Shown piece by piece: positions 32,573 to 40,111 of a stretch of DNA of 64,000 nucleotides. The position numbers and the translations under genes were made by a program. The stretch comes from Eledone cirrhosa. Lineage: Eukaryota. The first letter of the stretch is position 1. Each line of letters begins with the position of its first letter. A model generated the notes under the pieces. The model did no database searches and was not told the origin of the DNA. It saw nothing but the letters and a program-made list of their open reading frames with translations. The stretch is taken from contig OZ024755.1 of NCBI GenBank assembly GCA_964016885.1, forward strand, positions 40,672,001 to 40,736,000, written 5' to 3'.

Positions 32573-32662
32573 GAGATAAGTTTACCCCGGGTTCAATCGG
32601 GGGTAAGCACAGTAAATAAGGTACTCAATACATAGCAGAGTATAAATATTTAATATAGAAAT

Positions 32663-32712
32663 GGCTTCTACAGGACAAGAAATGTTTCATTCGGAGAAAT
32701 CATCAGGAGGCT
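32663..32712 (-). ncRNA. Type I hammerhead ribozyme (family A)
   Basis: GCCTC CTGATGA T-TTC TCC GAA-T GAAA CA tttcttgtcc TG TA| GAAGC. Core intact, one stem I mismatch, U-U at the base of stem II. Confidence 0.72.
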
Positions 32713-32759
32713 TCCTGATCATTTCTCCCGAATGAAACAGTTCTAGTCCTGTAGAAGCC
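32709..32759 (+). ncRNA. Type I hammerhead ribozyme, core mutated (CUGAUCA)
   Basis: Stem I GGCTTC/GAAGCC, stem III ACAG/CTGT, GUA site. G8->C probably inactivates it. Confidence 0.65.
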
Positions 32760-32837
32760 TTTCTATATTATATACACATATATATATATATATATATATA
32801 TATATATATATATATATATATATATATATATATATAT

Positions 32838-33014
32838 AGGAAAATGTTTAACCACGACGGCAGAGCTCAAGCCGTTTCGACGGCTATTTCTGGAGTCCAG
32901 AAATAGCCGTCGAATCGGGGTTAAACATTTTCCCATTACCCACTCTACTACCCCAAGTATTGAGTACTCTGGTGCGTTATGGTCCACCTGGTTCCTTACC
33001 ACACTTCCTTCGTT
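32838..33014 (+). mobile_element. Family B element with a fold-back 5' end and half-hammerhead
   Basis: Hairpin centred at 32895. Minus-strand GAAACGGC..GCCGTC at 32856-32878. Homologous to 33135-33249 and 39282-39482. Flanked by (TA)n. Confidence 0.75.
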
Positions 33015-33134
33015 ATATATATATTTATATATATATATATTTATATATATATATATATATATATATATATATATATATATATATATATATATATATATAT
33101 ATATATATATATATATATATATATATATATATAC

Positions 33135-33249
33135 AACGAAGGAAATGTGGTAAGGAACCAGGTGGACCATAACGCACCAAAGTACTCAATACTTGGGGTA
33201 GTAGAGTGGGTAATGGGAACCGGTAAGACCCCGGTAAGACCGGTTCCTA
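33135..33249 (-). mobile_element. Family B 3' fragment, tail-to-tail with the previous copy across (TA)n
   Basis: 33135-33218 is the reverse complement of about 32931-33014. Confidence 0.8.
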
Positions 33250-33389
33250 TATATATATACAGTGAGATTAATGTATAAAGTTATCTCTAATGCTTAGACA
33301 TCTCAATGAAATGATAAGATATATTAATAAATCATCTACTCAGACAAGTAATTAAAATAAGATGGTTTTACTCATATATATATTAATTA

Positions 33390-33448
33390 ATTTATTAAAA
33401 TAATAGATTAAAGTTTAAGCAAAGAATCGCTGCTTTCACCCTTAACGG
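33390..33448 (-). mobile_element. Family D fragment
   Basis: Near-identical to 34912-34970. Confidence 0.7.
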
Positions 33449-33640
33449 TATTACTATATATATACATATACATATGTGTGAGTGTGTGTGTCATATATAT
33501 ATATATATATATATATATATATATATAAATATATGACACACTCACTCACACATATGTGTATGTATGTGTATGTATATATATATATATATATGTATATATA
33601 CGATATTAATAAATGGAAACTATATTTATAAAACCATATT

Positions 33641-33705
33641 TATTTCATTATACATATTTCAGGGATACCACATTAAATTATGATATGCCTTCATCAGACA
33701 AAATA
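33641..33705 (-). ncRNA. Minimal type I hammerhead ribozyme (family C)
   Basis: TATTTTGT CTGATGA AGGCATATCAT..GTGGTATCCCT GAAA TATGTA TA| ATGAAATA. 8-bp stem I with G-U pairs, long stem II, near-palindromic loop III. Confidence 0.82.
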
Positions 33706-33941
33706 CAATATATAACAGTTTTACAAATAAGCTTTGACGTACCCTTTTAAAATGCAACCATTATTTTAAATAGAACTTTTGCATATATGTATATATATAT
33801 ATATATATATAATTGTGTATATATATATATATATATATATATATATGTGTGTGTGTGTGTGTGTGTGTGTGTGTGTGTGTGTGTGTTGATTTAACACTTC
33901 ACTGCTCACAAGTGTTTTTTAAGCTTCATATCATGTTTCCC

Positions 33942-34012
33942 TATTTTATCTGATGTGAACGCAAATATCATCCCATGATGATATTTGTTTTTGAAATGCG
34001 CATAATAAAATA
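33942..34012 (+). ncRNA. Minimal type I hammerhead ribozyme, A9U variant (family C-like)
   Basis: TATTTTAT CTGATGT GAACGCAAATATCATC ccat GATGATATTTGTTTTT GAAA TGCGCA TA| ATAAAATA. Perfect 8-bp stem I, palindromic TGCGCA loop. Confidence 0.75.
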
Positions 34013-36860: not shown

Positions 36861-37545
36861 AAACAAATAACGAAACGAAATTAAATTTCGTTTCGTTTGT
36901 AACTCACTTTTGTATGACTGACGCTTAAACAATTAAGTTAAAAATGTACATCCACATATGTATACTGAAATACTAGTATGCATATGAATACACACACGTA
37001 TACATATGTAGATGTACCGAGTTTTTCACTGGTCACTTTACTGTGAGTGTCCAGCTATTCTGTATGTAAACACACAGACAAACCGGTTTTTAGAGTCATA
37101 CTGGTTTTTGAGGAAACACCTTTCCTCTATTCTCCAGAAAGCCAGACAAGGAATATTGAACTAGTTTCGTTGTTGTTACAACTCATCAGCAATATTTACC
37201 TATCTTCCGGCCTTTCTAGAGAATCGTAAAAGCACATATCGTTATATGCTTTTTCTATGAAAATTAGTAGTGGGCAGACTAATTTGCATAGAGCGTGAGT
37301 ACGTACCGGTTCAACGGAGACGATAAAAACAAATAACGAAACGAAATTAAATTTCGTTTCGTTTGTAACTCACTTTTGTATGACTGACGCTTAAACAATT
37401 AAGTTAAAAATGTACATCCACATATGTATACTGAAATACCAGTGAAAAACTCGGTACATCTACATATGTATACGTGTGTGTATTCATATGCATACTAGTA
37501 CTTCAGTATACATATGTGGATGTACATTTTTAACTTAATTGTTTA
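36861..37545 (-). mobile_element. Retrozyme-like element, family G: 466-nt monomer, ~1.24 units, plus a 107-bp inverted arm
   Basis: Direct repeat 36861-36973 = 37327-37439. 37439-37545 is the reverse complement of 36926-37032. One hammerhead per unit. (TA)n flanks. Confidence 0.85.
37152..37196 (-). ncRNA. Minimal type I hammerhead ribozyme (family G)
   Basis: AATATTG CTGATGA GTTGT aaca ACAAC GAAA CTAG TT| CAATATT. Perfect 7-bp stem I, 5-bp stem II, palindromic ACTAGT. Confidence 0.92.
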
Positions 37546-37675
37546 TATATATATATATATATATATATATATATATATATATATGTGTGTGTGTGTGTGT
37601 GTGTGTGTGTGTGTGTGTGTGTGTGTGTGTGTGTGTGTGTGTGTATATATATATATATATAGAGAGAGAGAGAGA

Positions 37676-38085
37676 GAAAGGATAAAAAGGACGATTGATT
37701 ATTCCTTCATTGCATTTATTGATAGGTGACGCGCGTTTCGCCACTGATCAGCTCAAGGTTCGATCTATATCGATCCTACCCGACTCAATAATCGGCAGCT
37801 CGACGGACCCTCTTAAAATGCTATAAGAAAATGAAATATATGCTATGGACCCTTCGTTGAGCTGCCGATTATTGAGTCGGGTAAGATCGATACAGATCGA
37901 ACTTTGATCAGTGGCGAAACGCGCGTCACCTACCGATAAATGCAATGAAGGAGTAACCAATCGTCCTTGTTATCCTTTCAATATAATACACTCTGTATAG
38001 CTCTACACCTCAACACAGAAGTGAACCTAAACATCGAGTGCTCTCCCGGGTGAACCTGCAGTAACTCCAAGTTACACTCCCTAGA
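37676..38085. mobile_element. Family H inverted element with hammerhead 3' halves
   Basis: Arms ~37676-37807 / 37852-37979. GAAAC-GCGC-GTC at 37916-37927 (+) and 37728-37739 (-). The plus arm carries a tail to 38085. Confidence 0.78.
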
Positions 38086-38284
38086 TATATATATATATAT
38101 AATAGGATATGTGTTCCTACACGCACAAGGCGCTAAGGGACACATGTATTGTCCAACCATATGCCAATGTGGTTCAATGGCAGGTTAATAAATTAACGAG
38201 CCAGAACATATATAATCAAGGTTTAGCAAATAAGATAAAGTTTCAAAATAAATTTTAAAAAATTAACTTTACTTACTATGGTTA

Positions 38285-38366
38285 CCTTTACCGAGTCGAT
38301 TTCTATTCTCAAAAATAAACGGAGTCCATACGGCCTTCGTTGCAAAGAAAGAATCTCGTCAGAAGG
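38285..38366 (-). ncRNA. Type I hammerhead ribozyme (family I), with two stem substitutions
   Basis: CCTT CTGACGA GATTCT...AGAATA GAAA TCGACTCGG TA| AAGG. Confidence 0.8.
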
Positions 38367-39012
38367 ATCTTTTCATTCGGAGAATATAAAATTCTCGAAT
38401 TCAAATTACGAACTGGCGCTATTCAAAATTGTTCCCGAGATGAGAGTAAATGAAATGGAATCAATTTTTTCAAGGGCCGAATGTAAAGATAGAGGCAGAG
38501 GCAGAGAGGTCAGATGGCTACTGCTATAACTAGCAGCAGTCAGAACGACCAAATTTTTCTCAACATAGAGGAGAATAGTTATAATAGGATATATGTTCCT
38601 ACACGCACAAGGTAACCATAGTAAGTAAAGTTAATTTTTTAAAATTTATTTTGAAACTTTATCTTATTTGCTAAACCTTGATTATATATGTTCTGGCTCG
38701 TTAATTTATTAACCTGCCATTGAACCACATTGGCATATGGTTGGACAATACATGTGTCCCTTAGCGCCTTGTGCGTGTAGGAACACATATCCTATTATTA
38801 CTATTCTCCTCTATGTTGAGAAAAATTTGGTCGTTCTGACTGCTGCTAGTTATAGCAGTAGCCGAATGACCTCCCTGCCTCCGCCTCTATCTTTACATTC
38901 GGCCCTTGAAAAAATTGATTCCACTTCATTTACTCTCATCTCGGGAACAATTTTGAATAGCGCCAGTTCGTAATTTGAATTCGAGAATTTTATATTCTCC
39001 AAATGAAAAGAT

Positions 39013-39092
39013 CCTTCTGACGAGATTCTTTCTTTGCAACGAAGGCCGTATGGCCCGTTTATTTTTGAGAATCGAAACCGACTCGGTAAAGG
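39013..39092 (+). ncRNA. Type I hammerhead ribozyme (family I), intact
   Basis: CCTT CTGACGA GATTCTT..AACG..GGCC gtat GGCC CGTT..GAGAATC GAAA CCG act CGG TA| AAGG. GUA cleavage predicted after 39088. Confidence 0.93.
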
Positions 39093-39281
39093 TAACCATA
39101 GTAAGTACAGTTAATTTTTTAAAATTTATTTTGAAACTTTATCTTATTTGCTAAACCTTGATTATATATATATATATATATATGTATATATATCTATATA
39201 TATATATGTATATCTATATCTATATATATATATATATATATATATATATATATATATATATATATATATATATATATATAT

Positions 39282-39482
39282 AACGGAGGAAATGTGGTAA
39301 GGAACCAAGTGGACCATAACGCACCAAAGTACTCAATACTTAGGGTAGTAGAGTGGGTAATAGGAACGAGTAGGACCCCGACGGCTGAGCTCAAGCCGTT
39401 TCGACGGCTAATTCTGGACTCAGTCCAGAATTAGCCGTCGAAACGGCTTGAGCTCAGCCGTCGGGGTCCTACTCGTTCCTAT
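39282..39482. mobile_element. Family B element with a perfect 123-bp palindrome (39360-39482)
   Basis: Centre at 39421. GAAACGGCT tgagctc AGCCGTC (stem III plus GUC) at 39440-39462, mirrored at 39380-39402. Confidence 0.82.
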
Positions 39483-39630
39483 ATATATATATATATATAT
39501 ATATATATATATATATATATATATATATATATATATATATATATATATATATATATATATATACATATATATATATATATATATTATTCAAAATGTTAAC
39601 AAATGAAAAATATTCGCATAATCAAAATAT

Positions 39631-39698
39631 ATACTTTATTATATATATTTCAAAGGTACTCTGGCGTTTTTTCAGTACGTCCTCATCAGACAAAATAT
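39631..39698 (-). ncRNA. Minimal type I hammerhead ribozyme (family C-like)
   Basis: ATATTTTGT CTGATGA GGACGTACT..AGTACCTTT GAAA TATATA TA| ATAAAGTAT. Confidence 0.82.
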
Positions 39699-40111
39699 AT
39701 GATTTGATATATGACATACCGCAATACATTTTGAATAATATTAGAAACTCCAAGAAAACATTCTGTTGAGTGCTTCTAATCTATTGTAAAACTGTATTCG
39801 TTGAGTAATCAACGAACCATATTAATCTTTGGTTATATATATATATATATATGTGTGTGTGTGTGTGTGTGTGTGTGTGTGTGTGTGTGTGTGTGTGTGT
39901 GTGTGTGTGTGTGTGTGTGTGTGTGTGTGTGTGTGTGTGTAAGGATGATATTAAGAAAAATGCTGCGATTACATAAATCATTTATTCATTATAAATATTT
40001 CAATGGTTCCATTATTCAATCCAAGATGTAGTATTTACATTTGTTGATGGCATGGGAACGATTTCTTCAGATGAAATATTCCTTTATATTATATGCTGCA
40101 AGTAAAAAGCA

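Follow-up and report, generated by a model that had tools for sequence, protein, structure and literature searches.

Penelope-like elements (PLEs) of the Hydra clade carry a C-terminal endonuclease, and the clade, its (TA)n target and an Octopus member, Hydra-1_Obim of Octopus bimaculoides, have already been published (Craig et al. 2021, PMC8557442); the role of the hammerhead ribozyme in endonuclease-bearing PLEs is called unclear there. The minimal type I hammerheads of metazoan PLEs have a short stem I, a palindromic or tiny stem III and a U3-A8 variant, and occur in opposed pairs 100-700 bp apart, mostly as single truncated copies (Cervera and de la Pena 2014, PMC4209133). Metazoan non-LTR retrozymes are tandem non-coding units of a few hundred bases with one type I hammerhead each, and their mobilisation by PLEs has been proposed (Cervera and de la Pena 2020, PMC7229834; Li, Clavereau and Pollet 2026, 10.64898/2026.07.22.740005). 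In vitro, the Poseidon PLE of Anolis nicks and extends both strands, its two start sites define the tail, and mutants with a dead ribozyme still insert (Frangieh et al. 2024, PMC11167929).

The locus described here lies in a 64,000-nucleotide stretch of Eledone cirrhosa DNA (the window). Between 32573 and 39832 we found about 15 insertions belonging to 11 families, where the original prediction had counted about nine. This stretch is very probably a nested pile-up in (TA)n of the pLTR ends of eight, probably nine, Hydra-clade PLEs together with two protein-free tandem repeats. The elements share with the published Hydra clade one ORF that contains RWK-type, DKT and CxCX5C motifs, a pLTR hammerhead, the (TA)n target, 5' truncation, an inverted 5' copy and a tail at one end; insertion into (TA)n, truncation, inverted copy and one-ended tail were all found in the copies analysed. 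They differ from the published description (PMC8557442) in having at least eight families at 34-55% protein identity, where Octopus has one listed family; in tails of 60-110 nt as against 30-40 bp; in a family A spacer of 2.5-4 kb of TA/TG, when published Hydra elements are generally <3 kb in total; and in the non-canonical cores of families B, C and I. The hammerheads resemble those of PMC4209133 in stem architecture, opposed arrangement, the predominance of single truncated copies and the U3-A8 variant, but the genome holds >200,000 motifs as compared with about 2,000-9,000 in the genomes surveyed there, and the available text of that survey makes no mention of family-wide U4A or U4C+A6U cores.

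Eleven CTGANGA sites are present in 32573-39700, and ten of them fold as type I hammerheads with intact cores (32706-, 33697-, 34279-, 34492+, 35178+, 36709+, 37189-, 38362-, 39017+ and 39689-); the site at 34389- gave no type I fold. In all ten, which had been predicted at these places, stems I-III are arranged in the type I order around a core of CUGANGA, GAAA and UH. Our initial strict descriptor recovered only one of the ten motifs because it demanded that 10.1 and 11.1 pair and that stem III be longer, and it was then relaxed. The final descriptor accepts nine; 35178+ is accepted by a looser descriptor alone, since this copy carries an altered stem II letter that is present in at most three among the first 100 family G copies listed. 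Shuffled sequence did not reproduce the density, one hit being obtained in 4 of 500 dinucleotide shuffles and more than one in none of the 500. An Rfam scan at gathering level found zero hammerheads in the window, so that these motifs are missed by its thresholds; below them, HH9 matched 37136-37207 on the minus strand (E 7e-7, 37.7 bits, gathering threshold 52). Stem I position 2.1-1.1 is C-G, U-A or G-C depending on the family, and three pair types at one position suggest that pairing is maintained across unrelated sequences, as judged by comparison of families rather than by a formal covariation statistic. Self-cleavage after H17 is predicted for these motifs.

The leftmost insertion is a head-to-head pair of family A Hydra PLE pLTR ends (32573..32765), in which the minus arm is a long end with an intact core at 32706 and a predicted cut after 32669, and the plus arm is a short end with a private core lesion at 32720. 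Two family B stub pairs follow, one made of 3' halves only (32838..33014, left end short, right end long) and one of tails only (33134..33248), and then a family C stub, again a 3' half (33385..33452, minus). The family D pLTR end (33600..33785, minus; intact core at 33697, predicted cut after 33649) is 97% identical to the ends of the ORF-bearing copy L175, and the family E pLTR end (33888..34042, plus; core at 33950 with a private A9 lesion) is 87% identical to the ORF-bearing copies L169 and L170. The family F head-to-head pair (34087..34591) has cores at 34279- in the long end and 34492+ in the short end, a palindromic loop III, and a point of inversion that falls on an internal 30-nt palindrome also present at other loci.

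A 5'-truncated copy of subfamily A2 of family A (34600..36845, plus) consists of its own TA/TG spacer followed by a pLTR with a core at 36709 and a predicted cut after 36747, and it is host to three later insertions. A family C pair (34824..35108; minus arm core at 34979 with the family-wide U4A, H17 at 34939) and a family G fold-back (35137..35310, plus; core at 35178, weakened stem II) are nested in the TA tract that this copy carries. The third, a MITE at 35746..36489 with 14-bp terminal inverted repeats and an 8-bp target duplication, splits the A2 pLTR; from the length of the duplication we take it to be hAT-like. Beyond this copy, the 467-bp non-coding retrozyme-type unit of family H (36862..37545) has a minus arm of more than one unit with a long end and an inverted arm with a short end, and its minimal hammerhead at 37189- has a predicted cut after 37159. 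In the family I pair (37668..38085), a full hammerhead occupies the minus arm, its variant core CCGUCGA (U4C, A6U) lying at 37806 and its predicted cut after 37728, and the plus arm has a degraded core and a long end. The 480-bp non-coding retrozyme-type unit of family J has a long stem II and forms a head-to-head pair (38099..39165), in which the long end has its core at 38362- and the short end at 39017+. The last two insertions are a family B stub pair of 3' halves, inverted within stem II (39282..39481), and a family D' end (39587..39832, minus; intact core at 39689, predicted cut after 39640) with 73-75% identity to its relatives; an endonuclease frame lies upstream in one of these, L181. 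The cluster lies within an 11-kb island flanked by satellites, and a tRNA gene is found 330 bp away from it.

Every family has two fixed 3' ends, and ends are bimodal in all eight families that have a tail in the reference. Of 110 head-to-head pairs, 103 join a long end to a short one. From the genomic copies we can propose a mechanism in which the GIY-YIG domain would nick both strands of (TA)n and the RT would prime from both nicks at two fixed points on one template lineage, one start lying beyond the 60-110-nt tail and the other before the tail, beside a small RCTC/GAGY hairpin. The two cDNAs would then join at self-complementary places, often the hammerhead stem or another palindrome, and early joining would produce short head-to-head stubs such as those in the window. 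The two RT starts bounding a tail, the AT-rich target and the hammerhead adjoining the ORF start are all like Poseidon, an element of another clade; however, no strand difference in start site was seen there (PMC11167929), whereas in 103 of the 110 pairs here each arm uses its own site.

For the joining step only, a snap-back is an alternative that we regard as possible though rather unlikely: a single cDNA started at the long end would fold at a palindrome, copy itself and stop at the short end, perhaps at an endonuclease nick in the element's own AT-rich site. The one-long-one-short rule follows directly from it, inversions do centre on palindromes (the centre of F, the back-to-back A cores, stem II of B), and rare variants are often common to both arms. 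Against this, single copies terminate at either site, two-armed multi-unit arrays require long copying in both directions, and a PLE extends both strands in vitro (PMC11167929). The arms of a pair are closer to each other than random copies are in seven of ten families, whereas in C, G and J their similarity does not exceed that of random copies. In the family I pair of the window they differ at 4 of 45 letters and belong to different subfamilies, one arm exactly matching another subfamily; this counts against the snap-back, and the single template lineage of the mechanism proposed above does not account for it either. A small test for RNA-editing scars among rare changes in the copies analysed gave no excess of sense-strand A>G (76) over T>C (103; p = 0.45). 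Ribozyme cutting is probably dispensable for insertion of the autonomous families, and those hammerheads whose core is canonical probably have weak cleavage activity, as dimers or when aided by a protein.

That these are Penelope-type hammerheads in (TA)n, from many multi-copy families and tied to a PLE RT/GIY-YIG protein, was borne out; longer copies elsewhere in the genome encode RT and endonuclease in families A, B, C, D, E, F, G and I. On the evidence of their sequences, these eight families are assigned to the ends of separate Hydra-clade PLEs, and D' is probably another. In family A the order hammerhead, 758-codon frame, spacer, hammerhead on one strand was seen in 10 of 12 fetched loci, and the family A copies in the window stop where this frame starts. 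For B, C, D, E, F, G and I, same-strand ORFs were found upstream, sharing 34-55% identity with one another; the loci with linked ORFs in B, C, D, E, F and I had been selected as long pairs and show linkage, not its frequency. Hammerhead pLTRs flank the ORF in A (the same 10 of 12 loci), E (L169), F (L341) and I (L339), and in B, C, D and G the downstream repeat alone was seen next to the ORF. The frame, RT with a C-terminal GIY-YIG, is whole in A and E and partial or broken in B, C, D, F, G and I. Its motifs (RWx, DKT, YRDD, CxCX5C, GIY-YIG-like, CxxC) match the published Hydra definition, the RWK-type and DKT motifs, CxCX5C linker and C-terminal CxxC and CxH all being found in A and E and in most others where the piece covers them. 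Pfam gave no RT or GIY-YIG match on the family A and E proteins and did give a GIY-YIG match on homolog P0054; the placement in the Hydra clade is by motifs and by-eye comparison to the published alignment, not by a tree. We had considered an endonuclease-less family from a broken frame in L041, but its intact relatives carry the domain, and family F as a fixed palindrome without an ORF, until long pairs revealed ORF pieces.

The original proposal, that every family is a non-autonomous retrozyme mobilised in trans and that the locus is a special hotspot, we now consider very improbable. The cluster itself contains no real frame, as had been stated, but the longer copies of most families code for protein. 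Eight of the 11 families, or nine if D' is counted, represent 5'-truncated ends of elements that have an ORF of their own and thus need no helper, which largely refutes the proposal for these eight, and neither the lack of coding capacity nor the short tandem unit of non-LTR retrozymes was found in A-G or I. It fits two families, H and J, to which kinship with retrozymes is limited. These two alone appear, from their sequence, to be protein-free tandem retrozymes, and look non-autonomous. Their units, each with one hammerhead, are genuinely short, non-coding and tandem (H 465-468 bp, no ORF >30 aa; J 481-485 bp, no ORF >78 aa), and a pattern search of the genome gave 4,831 matches to H. No tail hairpin was found in H or J. 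Unlike metazoan retrozymes as published (PMC7229834; 10.64898/2026.07.22.740005), these arrays, known here from genomic copies, have two arms, terminate in long and short ends of the PLE type and lie in (TA)n, and they are likely copied by the same PLE enzymes.

As for the hotspot, it holds in a relative sense, at about 13 times background, with 7 hits (5 merged) by three patterns in the window; of 757 equal tiles of contig C1, none has more than 3 merged events. However, the window was picked for its density; 54 arbitrary 10-kb stretches gave 51 hits, and other 10-kb stretches reach 5-7, the highest 6-7. The cluster is the top tail of this density distribution and not a special locus; it is ordinary transposon debris that samples an unusually large system. 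A role as a selected host element, for instance a source of regulatory or circular RNAs, is hardly credible, for although circular retrozyme RNAs are expressed in coral, mussel and axolotl (PMC7229834) and a tRNA gene is nearby, the cluster is made of random stubs in both orientations with private lesions, one copy is split by the MITE, and the whole is an island between satellites.

Three copies had been listed as core-mutated. Two, 32715+ and 33950+, do carry private lesions, since the majority letters at 32720 and 33956 are canonical (these letters come from three public runs of contigs, kind unrecorded). The third, 34979-, has the core CAGAAGA, which is the standard of family C, canonical U4 occurring in 70 of 17,750 copies. 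Among five supposed 3'-half copies, the family I minus arm is instead a complete hammerhead with a U4C+A6U core; we too had at first read family I as lacking the 5' core, until a canonical sister subfamily set the register. Family I thus has one canonical (CUGACGA) and one altered (CCGUCGA) sister subfamily, and core positions deviate from canonical in B, C and I. Some families have spread widely with altered and likely weakened catalytic cores, and C and I would have multiplied to thousands of copies once changes at normally invariant positions had become fixed. If their hammerheads do cut, they are undescribed natural core variants; with the two family I subfamilies and the 17,750-copy U4A family, the genome offers matched natural test cases. 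Lunse et al. 2017 reportedly treated short PLE hammerheads, which may bear on these variants. Within the text available to our literature search, no cephalopod hammerhead count and no U4A or U4C+A6U families were reported, and the accessible part of an Octopus vulgaris repeat paper (PMC13282606) does not mention hammerheads.

By three patterns the 3.0 Gb genome contains at least 203,289 hammerhead motifs, with 607 in controls; for the much larger axolotl genome, 126,247 have been reported. We tentatively suggest, at somewhat short of even confidence, that Hydra-clade PLEs saturated this genome by a feedback loop for which a working ribozyme is unneeded, the C and I hammerheads serving as scaffold and fold-back point and not as cutter. 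Each full-length family A insertion would write kilobases of (TA)n into which other families would nest, and target supply would track copy number. If true, this would account for a total above that of axolotl. Together with the rule of one long and one short end, the element-borne TA tract leads to testable predictions on inverted PLE insertions and on the filling of TA-rich genomes. A TA run lies within 300 nt downstream of 70 of 84 sampled hammerheads, compared with 35% of random places. All insertions in the cluster are flanked by TA runs on both sides, which, with the 2.5-4 kb TA/TG repeat internal to family A, suggests that insertions seed further targets. At the place where the window has C and G, locus L013 has an empty TA run and L007 has B pairs.

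As judged from sequence, the cluster (32573-39700; families A, B, C, D, D', E, F, G, H, I and J) consists of predicted ends of Hydra-clade Penelope-like elements (PLEs) together with two retrozymes. These are known kinds of element, and the points added here are scale, nesting in an element-borne target, an end rule and fixed core variants. Ten of the 11 CTGANGA sites in the cluster fold as type I hammerheads, at the ten places named in the original prediction. A strict first descriptor retained only one motif; a U-U at the base of stem II, described as tolerated in passages of PMC3088659 and PMC7229834, and a palindromic loop replacing stem III were frequent in the motifs. 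With the final descriptor 9 motifs passed, versus a single match in each of 4 of 500 shuffles. The Rfam hammerhead models gave no match at gathering level in the window and one sub-threshold match in the cluster (HH9).

The families are multi-copy across the 3.0-Gb genome of this animal. Exact pattern counts over the whole genome, with 0 for the reversed controls, gave 22,213 copies of family A, 17,750 of C, 6,643 of F, 1,655 of G, 4,831 of H, 1,123 of I and 949 of J; for family B the pattern of the 3' half matched 54,367 times and the one including the 5' core 1,662 times. A general pattern covering D, D', E and F had 109,384 matches (control 333) and a second general pattern 71,692 (control 274); summed with the family A pattern these gave 203,289 matches versus 607 in controls, stems I and II lying outside the pattern definition. 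A stem-checking descriptor found 51 matches in 54 arbitrary 10-kb stretches after removal of 3 in (GAT)n runs, versus 1 and 0 in shuffles, which extrapolates to roughly 280,000 in the genome. The axolotl count quoted in a section of PMC7229834 is 126,247. At G000:C1:143338132-143785457 hammerheads of family G are spaced 47-60 kb apart, which suggests a large segmental tandem repeat.

An RT-like frame adjoins a family A copy, and a search with this frame returned 45,022 candidates at first look. Of these, 139 were scored, and a count by eye gave 19 with a stop-free frame of 758-759 codons. The order hammerhead, ORF, spacer, hammerhead was found on one strand in 10 of 12 fetched family A loci. 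The copy of subfamily A2 in the window shares 94-96% identity with the repeat next to a broken frame at locus L041 and 84% with the intact subfamily. Related frames lie upstream of the hammerhead on the same strand in families D, E, G, B, C, F and I, at loci mostly picked as long opposed pairs, and D' is linked to PLEs through 73-75% identical relatives only. The proteins, 34-55% identical between families, carry RWx, DKT, YRDD, CxCX5C, GIY-YIG-like and CxxC motifs, a set matching the Hydra-clade definition in the relevant part of PMC8557442, and by eye they also match Hydra-1_Obim; the Pfam GIY-YIG match was on a homolog only. From these motifs and the by-eye comparison, most families in the cluster are predicted to be Hydra-clade PLE ends. 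At L041 (6548-7636) the A2 RT frame is cut before the endonuclease and directly followed by a hammerhead of another family, either a chimera or a nested insertion. The PLE frame at locus L093 (3-1055) differs from these and has a GIY-YIG match in Pfam; the genome therefore also harbours another PLE clade.

Families H and J form tandem arrays, often two-armed, with units of 465-468 bp and 481-485 bp respectively, and no long frames were found in these arrays. At sequence level both fit the definition of a non-LTR retrozyme. The original reading of the cluster as self-cleaving elements mobilised in trans is partly right: it fits H and J, which look non-autonomous, and fails for most families, the predicted ORF-linked PLE ends. 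Two-armed retrozyme-type arrays with 310-311-bp units, absent from the window, were seen at locus L033 (6165-7877) and further listed places.

The cluster belongs to an island of 11 kb that is bordered by a 31-kb satellite on one side and a 48-bp satellite on the other, and with 9 descriptor matches in 7.1 kb it reaches about 13 times background. Among 74 other 10-kb stretches the highest count was 7 matches, from 5 events, and the 20 nearby stretches had 33 together. The three-pattern count was 7 in the window (5 after merging by hand), and none of 757 tiles of contig C1 exceeded 3 merged events. The cluster is a true top-tail in density, and it was selected for density. Events per stretch rise with the number of TA runs (rho 0.43, p 0.005, n=40 stretches), and TA lies within 300 nt downstream of 70 of 84 matches versus 35% of random places. 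Nine full-length A copies have spacers of 2.5-4.1 kb with 21-50 TA runs. The repeats at 34600-35545 are a spacer of this type: locus L013 shares the flanks, and its TA run is empty where the window has C and G, and locus L007 carries B pairs at that place. The A2 copy of the window is also split by a hAT-like MITE. The AT-rich segment 33262-33385, between TA runs, falls outside all identified families.

Private core lesions occur at 32715+ and 33950+. At position 4 family C carries A in all of the first 100 matches listed, and the canonical U occurs in 70 of its 17,750 copies. Among the first 100 family I matches listed, 79 read CCGUCGA; a sister subfamily, 211 of 1,155 matches, has the canonical CUGACGA. 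The family B core has either U3-A8, a published variant according to part of PMC4209133, or a C3-A8 mismatch, and U4C has been reported as tolerated in a viroid. Families B, C and I amplified while carrying altered cores, which fits the in vitro insertion by dead ribozyme mutants described in a portion of PMC11167929. No published U4A or U4C+A6U hammerhead family was found in the literature searched, of which coverage is incomplete. The canonical family I core is also contained in a 48-bp-period tandem array (G000:C3:300827902-300829795), which may be a satellite derived from a piece of a hammerhead.

In each of eight families the 3' end falls at one of two fixed positions, long and short, which lie 60-110 nt apart and are usually followed by TA. 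Among 128 head-to-head pairs in the fetched loci, 18 with an unclassifiable end were set aside, and 103 of the remaining 110 combined one long and one short end, a rule also obeyed by the pairs in the window. All 8 ORF-linked families have a RCTC...GAGY hairpin whose start lies 5-13 nt behind the short end, and H and J both lack it; the shuffle fractions were 0.0005-0.065, for a motif picked after inspection. A tail at one end is already known for PLEs (part of PMC8557442), and a Poseidon PLE studied in vitro used two start sites and carried out extension on both strands (sections of PMC11167929). Our preferred account of the pairs is twin priming, in which both nicks would prime cDNA to give two opposed arms. 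Snap-back of one cDNA, the less favoured account, may also make such pairs. In 7 of 10 families the two arms resemble each other more than randomly drawn copies do, the exceptions being C, G and J; palindromes often hold the inversion centres, and the arms of the family I pair in the window mix subfamilies. The copies are cut-short stubs that lie in either orientation and bear private lesions, and a test for editing scars in them was negative; both points argue against a host function.

Three satellites occupy 5-31106, 41552-42249 and 42509-64000 of the window (a mixed 11/13-bp unit and two 48-bp units), and a stop-free frame of 1,427 codons in the last of these was rejected as a repeat artefact. 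At 40390-40500 lies the 3' end of a LINE-like frame, terminating as at locus L301 and followed by a diverged family B-like tail (about 40520-40620). A tRNA gene on the minus strand (32160-32246; Rfam 57.4 bits), whose anticodon loop holds an insert, is a putative intron-containing tRNA-Tyr(GUA).
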